This document shows positions 59,478 through 63,417 of a DNA stretch of 64,000 nt, piece by piece. Below the pieces are notes generated by a model. It did no database searches, was not told where the DNA came from, and worked only from the letters and a program-made list of their open reading frames with translations. This DNA is from an uncultured Sphingorhabdus sp. Its GTDB lineage: Bacteria > Pseudomonadota > Alphaproteobacteria > Sphingomonadales > Sphingomonadaceae. The translations under genes were made by a program, and so were the position numbers. Where the stretch lies: assembly GCA_947501885.1 (NCBI GenBank), contig CANMXN010000003.1, positions 54,946 to 118,945 of the forward strand. Direction: 5' to 3'. Each line of letters begins with the position of its first letter. Positions within the stretch are counted from its first letter, which is position 1.

Positions 59478-60377
59478 TTGGCGGACCAAAAACCCCTAAA
59501 TTTTCAGGACATGATCCTGCGTTTACATAGCTTTTGGTCTTCAAAAGGTTGCGCAATATTACAGCCTTATGACATGGAAATGGGCGCAGGAACATTTCAC
59601 AGCGCGACCACATTGCGCGCGCTTGGCCCTGTTCCTTGGAACGCAGCCTTTGTGCAGCCGTGCCGCCGCCCAACCGATGGCCGTTATGGCGAAAACCCCA
59701 ATCGATTGCAGCATTATTACCAATATCAAGTCATCCTCAAACCATCGCCCTCCGATATTCAGCAGCTCTATTTGGATAGTTTGCGCGAAATTGGCATCGA
59801 TCCGATGCTGCACGACATAAGATTTGTTGAGGATGATTGGGAAAGCCCAACGCTTGGCGCATGGGGGCTTGGCTGGGAAGTATGGTGCGATGGCATGGAA
59901 GTCACGCAATTTACATATTTCCAGCAAATGGGTGGTTTTGATTGCAAGCCCGTTGCGGGTGAACTGACCTATGGTTTGGAACGGCTGGCCATGTATATCC
60001 AAGGCAAAGATAGTGTCTTTGATCTGGATTATAATGGTAGTGGCGTAACTTACGGCGATATATTCCATGAAAATGAAGTGCAAATGAGCACATGGAATTT
60101 TGAAATAGCGGACACCGAAACATTGTTCAAACAATTTGAAATGGCGACAGCCGAATGCGAAAATTGCTTGGAAAAATCTCTGCCTATTCCCGCCTATGAA
60201 CAAGCGATTAAGGCTAGCCATACGTTCAATCTATTGCAAGCACGCGGCGTGATTAGCGTACAAGAACGGGCATCCTATATGGGCAAGGTGCGCGATCTGG
60301 CAAAAGGCGCGTGCGAAAAATGGATAGAGATTAACAAAGAAGAATGGGCGCAAAAATTCCCCCAATGGAGTTTGTGA
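59478..60377 (+). CDS. glyQ: Glycine--tRNA ligase alpha subunit
   Basis: [31 protein letters not shown]-type ELTYGLERL. Confidence 0.98.
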
Positions 60378-60976
60378 TGATGGAGATTGTAAGCAATTTT
60401 ATGAACAGTGTTCATCTTGAGTCTGTCGCCAAAAGCACCACTCGCAACCGTAATAACACTCGTTACCCCACCGCCACTCGTAACCGCACCACTCTCCGTC
60501 ACGGCACTGCCACTTGTAACCGCAGCACTCTTCGTCGCCCCACCACCGTTCGTCACGCCGCCGCTACACGTCATTCTACCACCACTCGTCACCCTGAATT
60601 TATTTCAGGGTCTATTAGTGCTGGTAAGATACTGAACCAAGTTCAGCATGACGAAGGTGTTATACTGAAACAAGTTCAGCATGACGAATGCGGTGAAATC
60701 ATGTATGATTTAGTGAACACCGTTCGTCCTGAGCCTGTCGAAGGACAAGGTAGTGTGGTTCATGCTTCGACAAGCTCAGCACGAACGGCAAAGCTACTAG
60801 ATCAAAAGAGGTTCACCGATCTTGTCGAAGGACAGGTGATGCGCTCTTATCATGATTCACTCGGCGTGATACTGAAACAAGTTCAGCATGACGAAGATGT
60901 TATACTGAACCAAGTTCCGCATGACAGTAATCGATTGCCGAACCAAGTCCCACATGACGGGGGTGACAGGTCATGA
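60377..60976 (+). CDS. Repeat-derived 199-aa ORF filling the glyQ-glyS gap (coding status uncertain)
   Basis: ATG overlaps the glyQ stop (TGATG), TGA overlaps the glyS start (ATGA), no internal stop; built largely from repeats. Confidence 0.45.
   Translation: MMEIVSNFMNSVHLESVAKSTTRNRNNTRYPTATRNRTTLRHGTATCNRSTLRRPTTVRHAAATRHSTTTRHPEFISGSISAGKILNQVQHDEGVILKQVQHDECGEIMYDLVNTVRPEPVEGQGSVVHASTSSARTAKLLDQKRFTDLVEGQVMRSYHDSLGVILKQVQHDEDVILNQVPHDSNRLPNQVPHDGGDRS
60439..60600. repeat. Degenerate 18-bp tandem array, 9 units
   Basis: Units begin at 60439, 60457, 60475, 60493, 60511, 60529, 60547, 60565 and 60583; consensus about CACTCGTCACC-n7. Confidence 0.85.
60587..60959. repeat. Palindromic repeat family B (CGTC-tagged): one left arm and five right arms
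   Basis: Left CGTCACCCTGAATTTATTTCAGGGTC at 60587-60612; right arms like GATACTGAAMCAAGTTCAGCATGACG at 60628, 60661, 60868, 60901 and 60934. Confidence 0.85.
60720..60788. repeat. Palindromic repeat family A, copy 1
   Basis: CCGTTCGTCCTGAGCCTGTCGAAGG...CTTCGACAAGCTCAGCACGAACGG; decayed half-copy at 60811-60835. Confidence 0.9.
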
Positions 60977-63417
60977 GCGATTTTCTACTCGAATTACGAT
61001 GCGAAGAAATCCCCGCCCGCATGCAGGCCAAGGCCCGCGCCGATTTGGAGAAATTATTCACAGCCCAGCTTAAAGATGCTGGATTAGAAGTCCAAAGCAT
61101 CACCACTTATAGCACGCCGCGCCGTTTAGCATTGATAGCGCGCGGTCTGCCCAAGCAAACCGAAGCCGTGCGCGAAGAACGCAAAGGCCCAGCAGCAAAT
61201 GCGCCCGAACAAGCGCTAGCAGGATTCTTACGCAGTACAGGATTAAAGCGCGAAGATTTGGTGGAACGCGACGTCAAAGGCAAAGCGGTATTGTTCGCAA
61301 TCATCGAAAAACCAGGTCAACCCACGACGGATATATTGTCGGCTGCTATACCCGCGATTATAGCGGCATTCCCATGGCCCAAGTCACAGCGTTGGGGCGA
61401 GGCTAGCATTAGCAGTGAGAGTTTACGTTGGGTGCGGCCTTTGTCGAGTATCATTGCATTATTCGATGGCGAAGTGGTTGATTGCGAAGTGCATGGAATT
61501 GCTTCTGGCCGTACCACTATGGGCCATCGTTTTATGGCGAATAGTGCCGTTCGTGCTGAGCCTGTCGAAGCACGGGAAACCAGCTCTAGCACCCTTCGAC
61601 AAGCTCAGGGCGAACGGACTTCTAACACCGCGATAAGCATCGAAACGGTTGATGAATATCTGCCCAAATTGCGCGCCGCTCATGTGATAGTTGATCATGA
61701 AGAACGGCAAAATATTGTGCGAGATGGTGCAGCAAAAGCGGCTAGCGATGCAGGGCTATCTCTTGTCGAAGACGAAGGCCTAGTGATTGAAAATGCAGGT
61801 CTGACCGAATGGCCCGTGCCGCTGTTGGGCCGTTTTGACGAGGCTTTTTTGGATGTTCCCGAAGAGGTTATTCAGCTTACCACGCGCATTAATCAGAAAT
61901 ATTTTGTTGCCAGAGAGAAACAGGGCGATAGTGGTGGTAAATTGACCAACGCCTTTGTCTGTACCGCGAACATACATGCGATTGACGGCGGCAGCGCGAT
62001 TGTCGCGGGCAATGAAAAAGTATTGGCGGCGCGACTGGGCGATGCGAAATTCTTTTGGGAATTGGATCAGAAAACGCTGCTTAAAGAGCATGCCGAAAAA
62101 TTATCGAATATCGTGTTTCATGAAAAGCTTGGAACGGTGGCTGATAAGGTGGAACGCGTTGCGAAATTGGCGCGCTGGCTCTGCGAAGAAGGCATTGTTA
62201 AGCCTATCGCCAAAAACACCGTTCGTCCTGAGCCTGTCGAAGGACAGGGTGTTCATACTTCGACAAGCTCAGCACGAACGGCTGAAGAACTTGCTGATCT
62301 CGCCGAGCAAGCAGCGCGCTTATGCAAGGCTGATTTGGTCACCGAAATGGTGGGTGAATTTCCCGAATTACAAGGGCTCATGGGCGGATATTATGCCGCC
62401 AAAGAAGGATTACCAATCGAAGTATCCGAAGCAATCCGCGACCATTATAAACCCGTGGGCCAAAACGATGATGTACCGACAGATCCCGTCACCGTTGCAG
62501 TGTCGCTGGCTGATAAGTTGGATACGTTGGTAAGTTTTTTCTGGGAAGAAATGATGCCCACTGGATCGAAAGACCCCTTCGCACTCAGAAGAGCCACTAT
62601 TGGCATTATCGAATTAATTACAGCAAACAATCTCAGGATTAGAATGAATTTAGCTTGTGCGCAGACATTCCTTCCGTTGGCAAACAGAGACGCAATAGCA
62701 ATCTTCAATGAAGGTGCAATATCGCGAGTCCAAGAGATATCAAAACCACAATATGATCCAATAAGCGGCATATTTACTGTTATTAACCAAGACAGTCTTA
62801 AAGGATTGAATAAGGAAGTTTGGGATCAGCTAAATGAAAAGAATAAAGCCATCAGAACTAAGCTTAACGTCTTCTTCGCTGACCGTCTCAAGGTTCAGCA
62901 AAAAGAGGCTGGTGTTCGTCATGATTTGATTGATGCTGTGTTTGCGCTTGGCCAAGAAACAAATGAGCGCGAGGATGATTTGGTCCGTTTGCTGGCTCGC
63001 GTTCATGCTTTGCAGGATTTTGTCACCACCGATGATGGTGTGAATTTATTGGCGGGCTATAAACGCGCATCGAATATCCTCAAAAAAGAAGCACCAGATA
63101 CGCTTGATAACAGCAATGATATGAACAATAGCGAAATTGTTATTTTTGAAGCACCATCGGATGAACCCGATCAATCCACGGCTTTGCAAAATGCCTTAAA
63201 CGCAGCCGAGCCAAAGGCAGCCGAAGCCATTGAAAGCGAAGATTTCGAAGGCGCGATGAGCGCGCTGGCATCGCTGCGCACGCCCATCGATGCATTTTTC
63301 GACAATGTCATGGTCAATGATGAAGATGCAGCAAAGAAAAAATATAGATTAGGATTATTATCACGTTTCCGTGATGCTGTGCATCGCGTTGCTGATTTTT
63401 CCAAAATAGAAGGTTGA
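60973..63417 (+). CDS. glyS: Glycine--tRNA ligase beta subunit, with in-frame insertions
   Basis: LLELRCEEIP, TPRRL, WVRPL, GNEKVLAARL.DA.FF, EFPELQG, GSKDPFALRR, FFDNVMVN. Confidence 0.97.
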   Translation: MSDFLLELRCEEIPARMQAKARADLEKLFTAQLKDAGLEVQSITTYSTPRRLALIARGLPKQTEAVREERKGPAANAPEQALAGFLRSTGLKREDLVERDVKGKAVLFAIIEKPGQPTTDILSAAIPAIIAAFPWPKSQRWGEASISSESLRWVRPLSSIIALFDGEVVDCEVHGIASGRTTMGHRFMANSAVRAEPVEARETSSSTLRQAQGERTSNTAISIETVDEYLPKLRAAHVIVDHEERQNIVRDGAAKAASDAGLSLVEDEGLVIENAGLTEWPVPLLGRFDEAFLDVPEEVIQLTTRINQKYFVAREKQGDSGGKLTNAFVCTANIHAIDGGSAIVAGNEKVLAARLGDAKFFWELDQKTLLKEHAEKLSNIVFHEKLGTVADKVERVAKLARWLCEEGIVKPIAKNTVRPEPVEGQGVHTSTSSARTAEELADLAEQAARLCKADLVTEMVGEFPELQGLMGGYYAAKEGLPIEVSEAIRDHYKPVGQNDDVPTDPVTVAVSLADKLDTLVSFFWEEMMPTGSKDPFALRRATIGIIELITANNLRIRMNLACAQTFLPLANRDAIAIFNEGAISRVQEISKPQYDPISGIFTVINQDSLKGLNKEVWDQLNEKNKAIRTKLNVFFADRLKVQQKEAGVRHDLIDAVFALGQETNEREDDLVRLLARVHALQDFVTTDDGVNLLAGYKRASNILKKEAPDTLDNSNDMNNSEIVIFEAPSDEPDQSTALQNALNAAEPKAAEAIESEDFEGAMSALASLRTPIDAFFDNVMVNDEDAAKKKYRLGLLSRFRDAVHRVADFSKIEG
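61547..61617. repeat. Palindromic repeat family A, copy 2, inside glyS
   Basis: CCGTTCGTGCTGAGCCTGTCGAAGC...CTTCGACAAGCTCAGGGCGAACGG; read as VRAEPVEARETSSSTLRQAQGER. Confidence 0.92.
62219..62281. repeat. Palindromic repeat family A, copy 3, inside glyS
   Basis: CCGTTCGTCCTGAGCCTGTCGAAGGACAGGGTGTTCATACTTCGACAAGCTCAGCACGAACGG; read as VRPEPVEGQGVHTSTSSART. Confidence 0.92.

Follow-up and report, generated by a model that had tools for sequence, protein, structure and literature searches.

The glyQ-glyS locus and its palindromic element

The window analysed here, a 64,000-nt stretch of contig CANMXN010000003.1 from an uncultured Sphingorhabdus sp. (assembly GCA_947501885.1), carries on its plus strand the genes for both subunits of glycyl-tRNA synthetase (GlyRS); coordinates given below are positions of this whole window unless another contig is named. 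The alpha subunit is encoded by glyQ (59478-60377; Pfam tRNA-synt_2e, 3.4e-146) and the 814-aa beta subunit by glyS (60973-63417; Pfam tRNA_synt_2f, 8.6e-177, plus DALR_1), which is present as a single copy and is the sole GlyRS beta gene of the genome, where a search for a dimeric GlyRS also gave no match (TIGR00389, 0 hits, positive controls included). The genome comprises 2.65 Mb at 43% GC, is 100% complete and belongs to the Sphingomonadales, with the closest GlyS proteins found in Sphingorhabdus and Parasphingorhabdus. Within glyS, at a position that we call site 1, lies a palindromic element of 71 nt (61547-61617, plus strand). A sequence-only reading of the window had already described it as a hairpin inserted in frame in an essential gene, and the fold, the open reading frame (ORF), the empty sites of relatives and the status of glyS as the sole GlyRS beta gene confirm this description. 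In what follows, the repeat at site 1 is referred to as family A, and the CGTC-tagged repetitive extragenic palindromic (REP) units of the same genome as family B.

The element proper reads CC-GTTCGTGCTGAGCCTGTCGAAGCAC-GGGAAACCAGCTCTAGC-ACCCTTCGACAAGCTCAGGGCGAAC-GG, that is, two inverted REP-like units separated by 17 nt and enclosed by CC and GG, and its translation within glyS, VRAEPVEARETSSSTLRQAQGER, follows GHRFMANSA. As RNA, it folds into a single long imperfect hairpin of -41.9 kcal/mol, compared with -25.0 +/- 3.0 kcal/mol for dinucleotide shuffles (z -5.7), none of the 200 being as stable as the native sequence. The left unit (61549-61573, plus strand) has the form GTTCG-TGCT-GAGCCTGTCGA-AGCA-C, with its own stem of 5-6 bp and a loop of 11 nt, and is translated as VRAEPVEA; the right one (61591-61615) reads GTTCG-CCCT-GAGCTTGTCGA-AGGG-T on the minus strand, its plus-strand translation being (T)LRQAQGE. 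The variable spacer between both (61574-61590) diverges fast in relatives. Family-A arms follow the form GTTCG-[YSYT]-GAGCYTGTCGA-[ARSR]-Y, where the bracketed tetrads pair inside their own arm, so that the unit consensus can be written as G-YSYT-GAGCYTGTCGA-ARSR-Y, with a 5-6 bp stem and a conserved 11-nt loop. Among the 23 arms of the genome there are four covarying versions of the stem (TGCT/AGCA, TGTT/AACA, CCCT/AGGG and TCCT/AGGA), and pairing within the arm is complete in 20 of them. The majority of elements are hetero-dimers of two different stem versions, which accounts for the internal mismatches of the long hairpin. The 71-bp hairpin of the sequence-only reading stands at its position, refined to two REP-like hairpin units arranged head to head, as an inverted dimer, within an insertion of 84 nt. 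With up to two mismatches, the 13-mer GAGCCTGTCGAAG gives 8 matches against 0.49 expected. Elements of GC-rich relatives are longer (81-94 nt) and contain an additional inner palindrome.

Filled and empty alleles

Alignments of GlyS, initially with 26 sequences and then with 104 from the Sphingomonadales, reveal site 1 as empty in 98 of the 104, where GHRFHxxG-xITIGNA runs uninterrupted; the GlyS of the window has 28 additional residues. At the nucleotide level, an X2 metagenome contig, from a relative whose flanks are about 5-7% diverged, joins 61528 to 61666 through 53 nt, being exactly 84 nt shorter, and loose ends in X1 spell an empty allele, GHRF-HASG-AITIET. The net insertion spans 61544-61627 on the plus strand, 84 nt or 28 codons that read AVRAEPVEARETSSSTLRQAQGERTSNT, with boundaries uncertain by a few nucleotides because the adjoining codons have diverged. 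The segment is thus no common part of GlyS orthologs, and its absence from 98 of 104 proteins, together with an allele 84 nt shorter, indicates that a dispersed palindromic repeat has inserted into glyS, the sole GlyRS beta gene. A second in-frame copy is found at site 2, in the HD domain of the same protein (62219-62282, plus strand; reading VRPEPVEGQGVHTSTSSART). Site 2 is filled in the X1 and X5 relatives and empty in an X4 contig, where 62198 is joined to 62292 through 9 nt in an allele 84 nt shorter that reads GIVKGDADLA. The occurrence of filled and empty alleles among close relatives therefore indicates that both inserts are real, dispensable and polymorphic.

The variable length of GlyS in the order (673-896 aa in the 104 sequences) could have suggested an old lineage-specific loop that happens to resemble a repeat, and an assembly artefact might also be imagined. 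Marine-metagenome relatives 4-11% diverged carry the insert in ungapped contigs, which, coming independently, dispose of the artefact. Moreover, about 23 near-identical arms are found elsewhere in the genome and hundreds in others, with reversed-pattern controls of the arm search giving 0 or 1 matches per genome, and the empty allele is shorter by exactly 84 nt, so that an old loop or an artefact is refuted and retains practically no probability. An intein, an intron or a bypass were likewise dropped, since nothing characteristic of any of them is seen in the 84 nt and the frame is plainly open.

Reading frames and placement in the protein

The cores of the three family-A copies in the window (from GTTCG to CGAAC), the third one lying between glyQ and glyS (60720-60790, plus strand), measure 65, 67 and 59 nt. 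That of site 1 is off by 2 modulo 3, and therefore its right arm is read as LRQAQGER and those of the other two as STSSART, which bears out the earlier proposal that spacer length had shifted the right arm into another frame. In the elements of this genome, CC plus core plus GG makes a multiple of three, site 1 excepted. The left arm is read in the VRPEPVE-type frame in 10 of 10 in-gene copies and the right one as STSSxRT in nine of ten, LRQAQGER appearing solely at site 1. Each window copy is free of stops in three of its six frames, with TGA in one sense frame, and FVLSLSKG, the open frame that goes unused, is hydrophobic: its Kyte-Doolittle value is +1.1, versus -0.8 to -2.1 for the frames in use. 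The sequence-only reading had seen in such openness a pre-adaptation to residence in proteins; the several open frames are there, but the use of the same hydrophilic frames in 10 of 10 left and 9 of 10 right arms makes a selection filter fit the data at least as well. As 84 nt are divisible by three, the frame used is stop-free and the loop is hydrophilic, the essential gene stays open.

On alignment with GlyRS-beta of E. coli (7YSE/7EIV), site 1 falls between residues 194 and 197. The B1 domain of that protein comprises residues 1-65 and 125-215 (PMC8464048), so that the site lies within B1, at the turn of a beta-hairpin. In an AlphaFold2 model of GlyS built on 42 sphingomonad sequences (mean predicted local distance difference test score, pLDDT, 82), the site-1 insert falls between the short strands E181-183 and E220-222, and residues 189-220 have a pLDDT of 45-53. 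At site 2, the insert (residues 406-436) is devoid of secondary structure, its pLDDT being 51-66, and both low-scoring segments are flanked by confident strands and helices. Both inserts are best read as loops on the basis of this model, in line with the original suggestion that the element parasitises surface loops, whose position at the surface is a prediction. From these data we infer that translation most likely turns the insert into a disordered surface loop of 28 residues, neutral to the enzyme and tolerated rather than useful.

Family A in the genome and in the order

The genome contains about 13 family-A elements, about 10 of them in frame inside long ORFs. The hosts confirmed by profile search are GlyS (twice), ValRS, IleRS and PheRS-beta (encoded by ValS, IleS and PheT), TruB, SufC and methylmalonyl-CoA mutase (two elements in tandem). 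Such an intragenic proportion, 10 of 13, differs from that of the copy-rich relatives G084 and G228, where just 2 of the 20 elements sampled lie inside genes (Fisher p 1.6e-4), one in methylmalonyl-CoA mutase, at the same linker as here, and the other in CcmF. Other long ORFs that span elements in these GC-rich genomes were mostly judged spurious, being Arg-rich nonsense translations. In our reading, the low-GC genome has lost most of its intergenic copies and keeps those that could be removed by precise deletion alone.

Several hosts have features of their own. In the mutase (C1:470709-473021) the two tandem elements occupy the linker before the B12-binding domain, and a rearranged family-A copy is found in the same linker of G228 (locus L128), which therefore makes it another recurrent permissive site. 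TruB (C1:710685-712079) has about 460 aa instead of the usual 300 or so, and the excess corresponds to a composite in-frame insert, in which tandem repeats of the HPEAT type are accompanied by half of a family-A element and by several CGTC REP units (HPEFISGS / ILNQVQHDE). IleRS (C1:1555203-1558343) contains, beside its family-A insert, PLPDGERLGEGNKPSDEHPTLSLKGED, which looks like an in-frame copy of a different palindromic family, of the PLP..GEG / PSP..GE type by its sequence. This latter type is also common at GlyS site 2 of other genera.

In the alignment of 104 GlyS sequences, site 1 is filled in six: those of the window, L031, L033, L052, L045 and L037. L031 carries family A in the same frames as the window, L033 and L052 carry it in the STSSART register (69 nt), and the remaining two have other repeat families. 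At site 2, inserts are present in about 42 of the 104 and belong to at least six families (VRPEPVEG/STSSART, TPAKAGV/PASAGMT, PAQAG/LDPGLRRG, PLPFRGGVGVG/PNPSPEGEG, SPERGGGP/PLHHPSDGPPPRAGE and others). The presence of unrelated families at the same loops fits a tolerance filter, and a preference of insertion for both sites is possible as well. Across genomes, the distribution of family A is patchy, from 0 to about 53 elements among those labelled as the same genus, and it reaches other families of the order; in a sample of 301 Pseudomonadota the arm pattern was found in 8, one of which, a genome of another class, has about 49 elements. Across this patchy distribution the arms are nearly identical.

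Other repeats and variable segments of the locus

The 596-nt spacer between glyQ and glyS (60377-60973) consists almost completely of repeats: an 18/36-nt tandem array, the third family-A copy and four canonical family-B units (CGTCATGCTGAACTTGKTTCAGYATM) on the minus strand (60628-53, 60661-86, 60868-93 and 60901-26). Family B amounts to 88 units genome-wide. One open frame of 210 aa (60344-60976) crosses the spacer, overlapping both neighbours, and has no Pfam match. Contigs of relatives give many alternative joints in this region, which is therefore highly variable.

Further downstream in glyS, an AT-rich segment (62474-62872, residues about 500-633) is swapped for other sequence in close relatives, whose metagenome contigs skip 354-396 nt. 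The same block is the most variable of GlyS in the order-wide alignment, the model being of low confidence at 586-606, and it appears to be a third hypervariable insert, in this case non-palindromic, close to the junction of the HD and anticodon-binding domains. Searches against Rfam gave sub-threshold matches alone, namely AaHKsRNA41, an Aggregatibacter small RNA (sRNA), with 32 bits where the gathering score is 97, and otherwise spurious miRNA models. The AaHKsRNA41 matches lie on the minus strand at 62083-62287 and 60655-60792, and the consensus of that family holds a similar hairpin, CUGAGCUUGCCGAAGC...GGUUCGGCAAGCUCAG, the part in common being a CUGAGCUUGYCGAAG-like hairpin. This resemblance suggests that related hairpin repeats may exist in Pasteurellaceae, annotated there as sRNA.

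A candidate mobilising enzyme

A possible source of family A was found in relatives. In the G228 genome, the arms of one element (L132) stand 330 nt apart and enclose an ORF for a 94-aa GIY-YIG protein (Pfam PF01541, 2.2e-15), and GIY-YIG ORFs of 91-94 aa lie between family-A arms at L132, L135, L141 and L140, and between variant arms at L138 and L139. Of the 11 relatives with 10 arms or more, 8 have a close homologue of this protein (E <1e-25), versus 1 of the 30 with fewer arms (Fisher p 1.4e-5). All ten close homologues examined are bracketed by inverted REP-like arms within 20-60 nt. Six of the ten have arms of family A or close variants, two have those of a sister family (CCGTTCGTGTCGAGC..GTCGAGAC), and the remaining two have others. 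Searches of NCBIfam and PDB for a specific family or structure of these proteins gave nothing useful. At L132 (768-1469), the GIY-YIG ORF reads through its own left arm (GPSTSSRRTG) into a gene with a Prok-JAB domain, forming a fusion frame of 233 aa, so that the cassette apparently landed at the 5' end of the latter gene. The genome under study has only a distant homologue, of 101 aa and 37% identity (C2:255686-255990), and its gene is bracketed by two near-perfect inverted family-B units, CGTCATGCTGAACTTGTTTCAGCATC (C2:255632-256036).

These genes recall the Ssn proteins, single-domain GIY-YIG enzymes that cut single-stranded DNA (ssDNA) beside a cognate hairpin and whose genes are flanked by repeats (Chenal et al. 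2025, Nat Commun 16:2388, PMC11893778), a cassette that the same authors likened to an insertion sequence. As in the Ssn/SRM system, the family-A association involves a gene for a single-domain GIY-YIG protein of about 95-100 aa between inverted hairpin repeats, nuclease presence tracks repeat abundance and different nuclease lineages pair with different arm sequences; hosts of Ssn/SRM include sphingomonads and Wolbachia. In the genome of the window, the 5'/3' flanking architecture occurs for family B only. A further difference is that only 2% of Neisseria NTS repeats are intragenic (PMC11893778), versus about 77% of the family-A copies here. An Ssn-type GIY-YIG nuclease is the most likely agent that would have generated or moved family A, mobilisation by Ssn being put forward as a hypothesis both in PMC11893778 and here. 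RAYT/IS200 enzymes were rejected as mobilisers: PF01797 (Y1_Tnp) has 0 matches in the genome, its presence is uncorrelated with copy number in relatives, and the copy-rich relatives G019, G005 and G023 gave no match to it either.

Comparison with known systems

The sequence-only reading had compared the insert with the Rickettsia palindromic elements (RPEs; Ogata et al. 2000/2002, as summarised in PMC3733652 and PMC10969869). In terms of behaviour the comparison is apt, since RPEs are also palindromes found in frame in essential genes and absent from orthologs, which leave the gene open and add a peptide in a loop, with TruB and aminoacyl-tRNA synthetases (aaRSs) among their hosts. The likeness is only behavioural: the sequence family is probably different, RPE-1 is longer than the elements of this genome (59-71 nt), and RPEs reside in obligate intracellular bacteria whereas the host here, a marine sphingomonad with 2.65 Mb of DNA, is free-living. 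A closer match is provided by the intragenic dimers of CGTC-tagged REPs described by Di Nocera, De Gregorio & Rocco (2013, BMC Genomics 14:522, PMC3733652). Like family A, they are alphaproteobacterial hairpin repeats, mostly head-to-head dimers with no associated tyrosine transposase, that give rise to in-frame inserts of 20-30 aa in aaRSs and TruB of sphingomonads. Entries of their Additional file 3 include IleRS, TruB and residues 398-423 of the GlyRS-beta of E. litoralis (ELI_05865, VVPAKAGTS...IPASAGMT; PMC3733652), an Erythrobacter insert that corresponds to our site 2; site 1, in the B1 domain, is not among the listed sites.

Family B conforms to the definition of these REPs, with CGTC, an 8-bp stem initiated by A-T and a 5-nt loop, whereas family A departs from it. 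The definition calls for a stem of 8-9 bp starting with A-T, a loop of 4-5 nt and an unpaired CGTC tag (or TGTC/CCTC). Family-A arms begin with GTT-CGTC-CT, GTT-CGTG-CT or GTT-CGCC-CT, so that CGTC is present in some of them only and the last one or two letters at the tag position pair in the stem of the unit, and it is the stem of 5-6 bp with its 11-nt loop that leaves family A outside CGTC-1 to -4. Family-A peptides are absent from the intragenic table of that work (PMC3733652), literature searches for VRPEPVEG, LSLSKG, FDKLRANG and LRQAQGER retrieved no paper, and no description of family A, of the insertion at site 1 or of arm invariance inside coding DNA was found in the literature. The kind of event is already known, GlyS-beta included, and family A and site 1 are the additions. 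As for REPINs, they share with family A the two inverted REP units in a hairpin of about 70 nt that acts as one replicating unit (Bertels & Rainey 2011, PMC3116915), but they require a RAYT (PF01797), of which this genome has none, and their GTAG tag is not found in family A. With regard to miniature inverted-repeat transposable elements, no target-site duplication is visible between filled and empty alleles, and the sole 'parent' identified codes for a GIY-YIG nuclease instead of a transposase.

Invariant arms and the origin of the insert

The explanation that we favour is that a copy of a non-autonomous palindromic repeat inserted into the beta-hairpin turn of the GlyRS-beta B1 domain. Family A would have been generated or moved through ssDNA hairpins by an Ssn-type nuclease, small and with GIY-YIG as its single domain, whose gene would later have been lost from this genome, the about 13 copies being survivors. 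Their concentration in essential genes might reflect that removal from there needs a precise, frame-preserving deletion. As a whole, from repeat insertion and tolerated loop to Ssn-type origin and survivor copies, we consider this explanation quite probable.

A number of observations weigh against it. Comparison of filled and empty alleles shows no target-site duplication at either site, although the flanking codons are too diverged for one to be defined or for the junctions to be fixed. No close homologue of the nuclease associated with family A was found in the genome, the activity shown for Ssn is ssDNA cleavage and not transposition of repeats (PMC11893778), and neither family fits the published SRM motif (PMC11893778), HGTCWYN(0-2)YYVSBRHN(0-5)WNVSBRGN(0-2)RNCYNB, which has 13 matches genome-wide and none in 60300-62400 or beside the GIY-YIG gene. 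Even with no cognate nuclease, the copies in the spacer and at site 2 share about 97% identity over both arms and 6 nt of flank, which suggests recent copying by some other route. Moreover, the orthologous copies of relatives about 10% diverged have 0 differences in the 2 x 23 nt of the arms, against about 5 in the 17-20 nt of the spacer and 10-13 in the 39 nt after the element, and the sole change at an arm edge (61572 A>G) preserves a T-G pair. With respect to L031, the third-codon identity of glyS is 41% and the arms are identical at 22 of 25 and 27 of 27 positions, including 15 of 15 third positions (P ~1.6e-6 if orthologous and neutral). Conservation of the arms thus exceeds that of neutral loop-coding DNA, and hints at a constraint or a homogenising process beyond a neutral passenger.

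If such a constraint existed, in-gene arms would be functional cis-elements under selection at the nucleotide level and the insert would be domesticated, either as recognition sites for an Ssn-type ssDNA nuclease that would act on single strands during uptake or replication, or as mRNA structure pacing translation from one sub-structure of GlyS to the next. The invariance of the arms next to a changing spacer and 3' flank, the L031 figures and the strand and hairpin specificity of Ssn enzymes (PMC11893778) would all agree with this possibility. On the other hand, the genome is devoid of a close homologue of the corresponding nuclease, close relatives dispense with the insert at both sites, the same loops accept many unrelated repeat families, and independent recent insertions or local recombination could mimic conservation. 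The metagenome support consists of few short contigs, for which reason we rank this functional interpretation low and regard it as unlikely. Slightly less probable still is its most specific form, in which the arms would be kept letter for letter as ssDNA recognition sites of Ssn-type nucleases that tag core genes. Should this be true, aaRS and other core genes would be tagged for ssDNA restriction or for the control of recombination during transformation or replication, and the invariant arms beside fast-evolving spacers and codons, as well as the re-occupation of the loops by different families, would be accounted for.

The same invariance, together with the site shared with L031, could alternatively result from repeated, recent and independent insertion or from gene conversion at a hotspot, each insert being young in its lineage. 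Along these lines, L033 and L052 have family A in the other register and L045 and L037 have other families at site 1, presence and absence among metagenome relatives do not follow divergence, the spacer and site-2 copies are nearly identical, and the GlyS tree groups L031 with the empty-site L017 and L011 instead of the window. Nevertheless, the rare LRQAQGER frame, the orientation of the hetero-dimer (TGC left, CCC right) and GHRFM are common to the window and L031, a combination unlikely to arise independently, and conversion would shuffle the stem variants that relatives retain. We see such a hotspot as a possible, if doubtful, origin, a stronger contender than selection on the arms. As to orthology of the window and L031 inserts, the tree argues against it and the shared frame and orientation argue for it.

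Coming back to the insertion of a tolerated repeat, the record of palindromic repeats translated in essential genes now extends to a marine, free-living sphingomonad, with a repeat family and a permissive site that are both new. The filled GlyRS-beta loops, 6 of 104 at site 1 and about 42 of 104 at site 2, constitute a natural map of tolerance for 20-50 extra residues, and since filled and empty alleles of both sites coexist in marine metagenomes, their gain and loss can be studied at the population scale. Finally, the fact that a non-canonical family brackets Ssn-like GIY-YIG genes widens the range of hairpins that this family of nucleases may recognise, and offers pairs of enzyme and substrate that can be tested.

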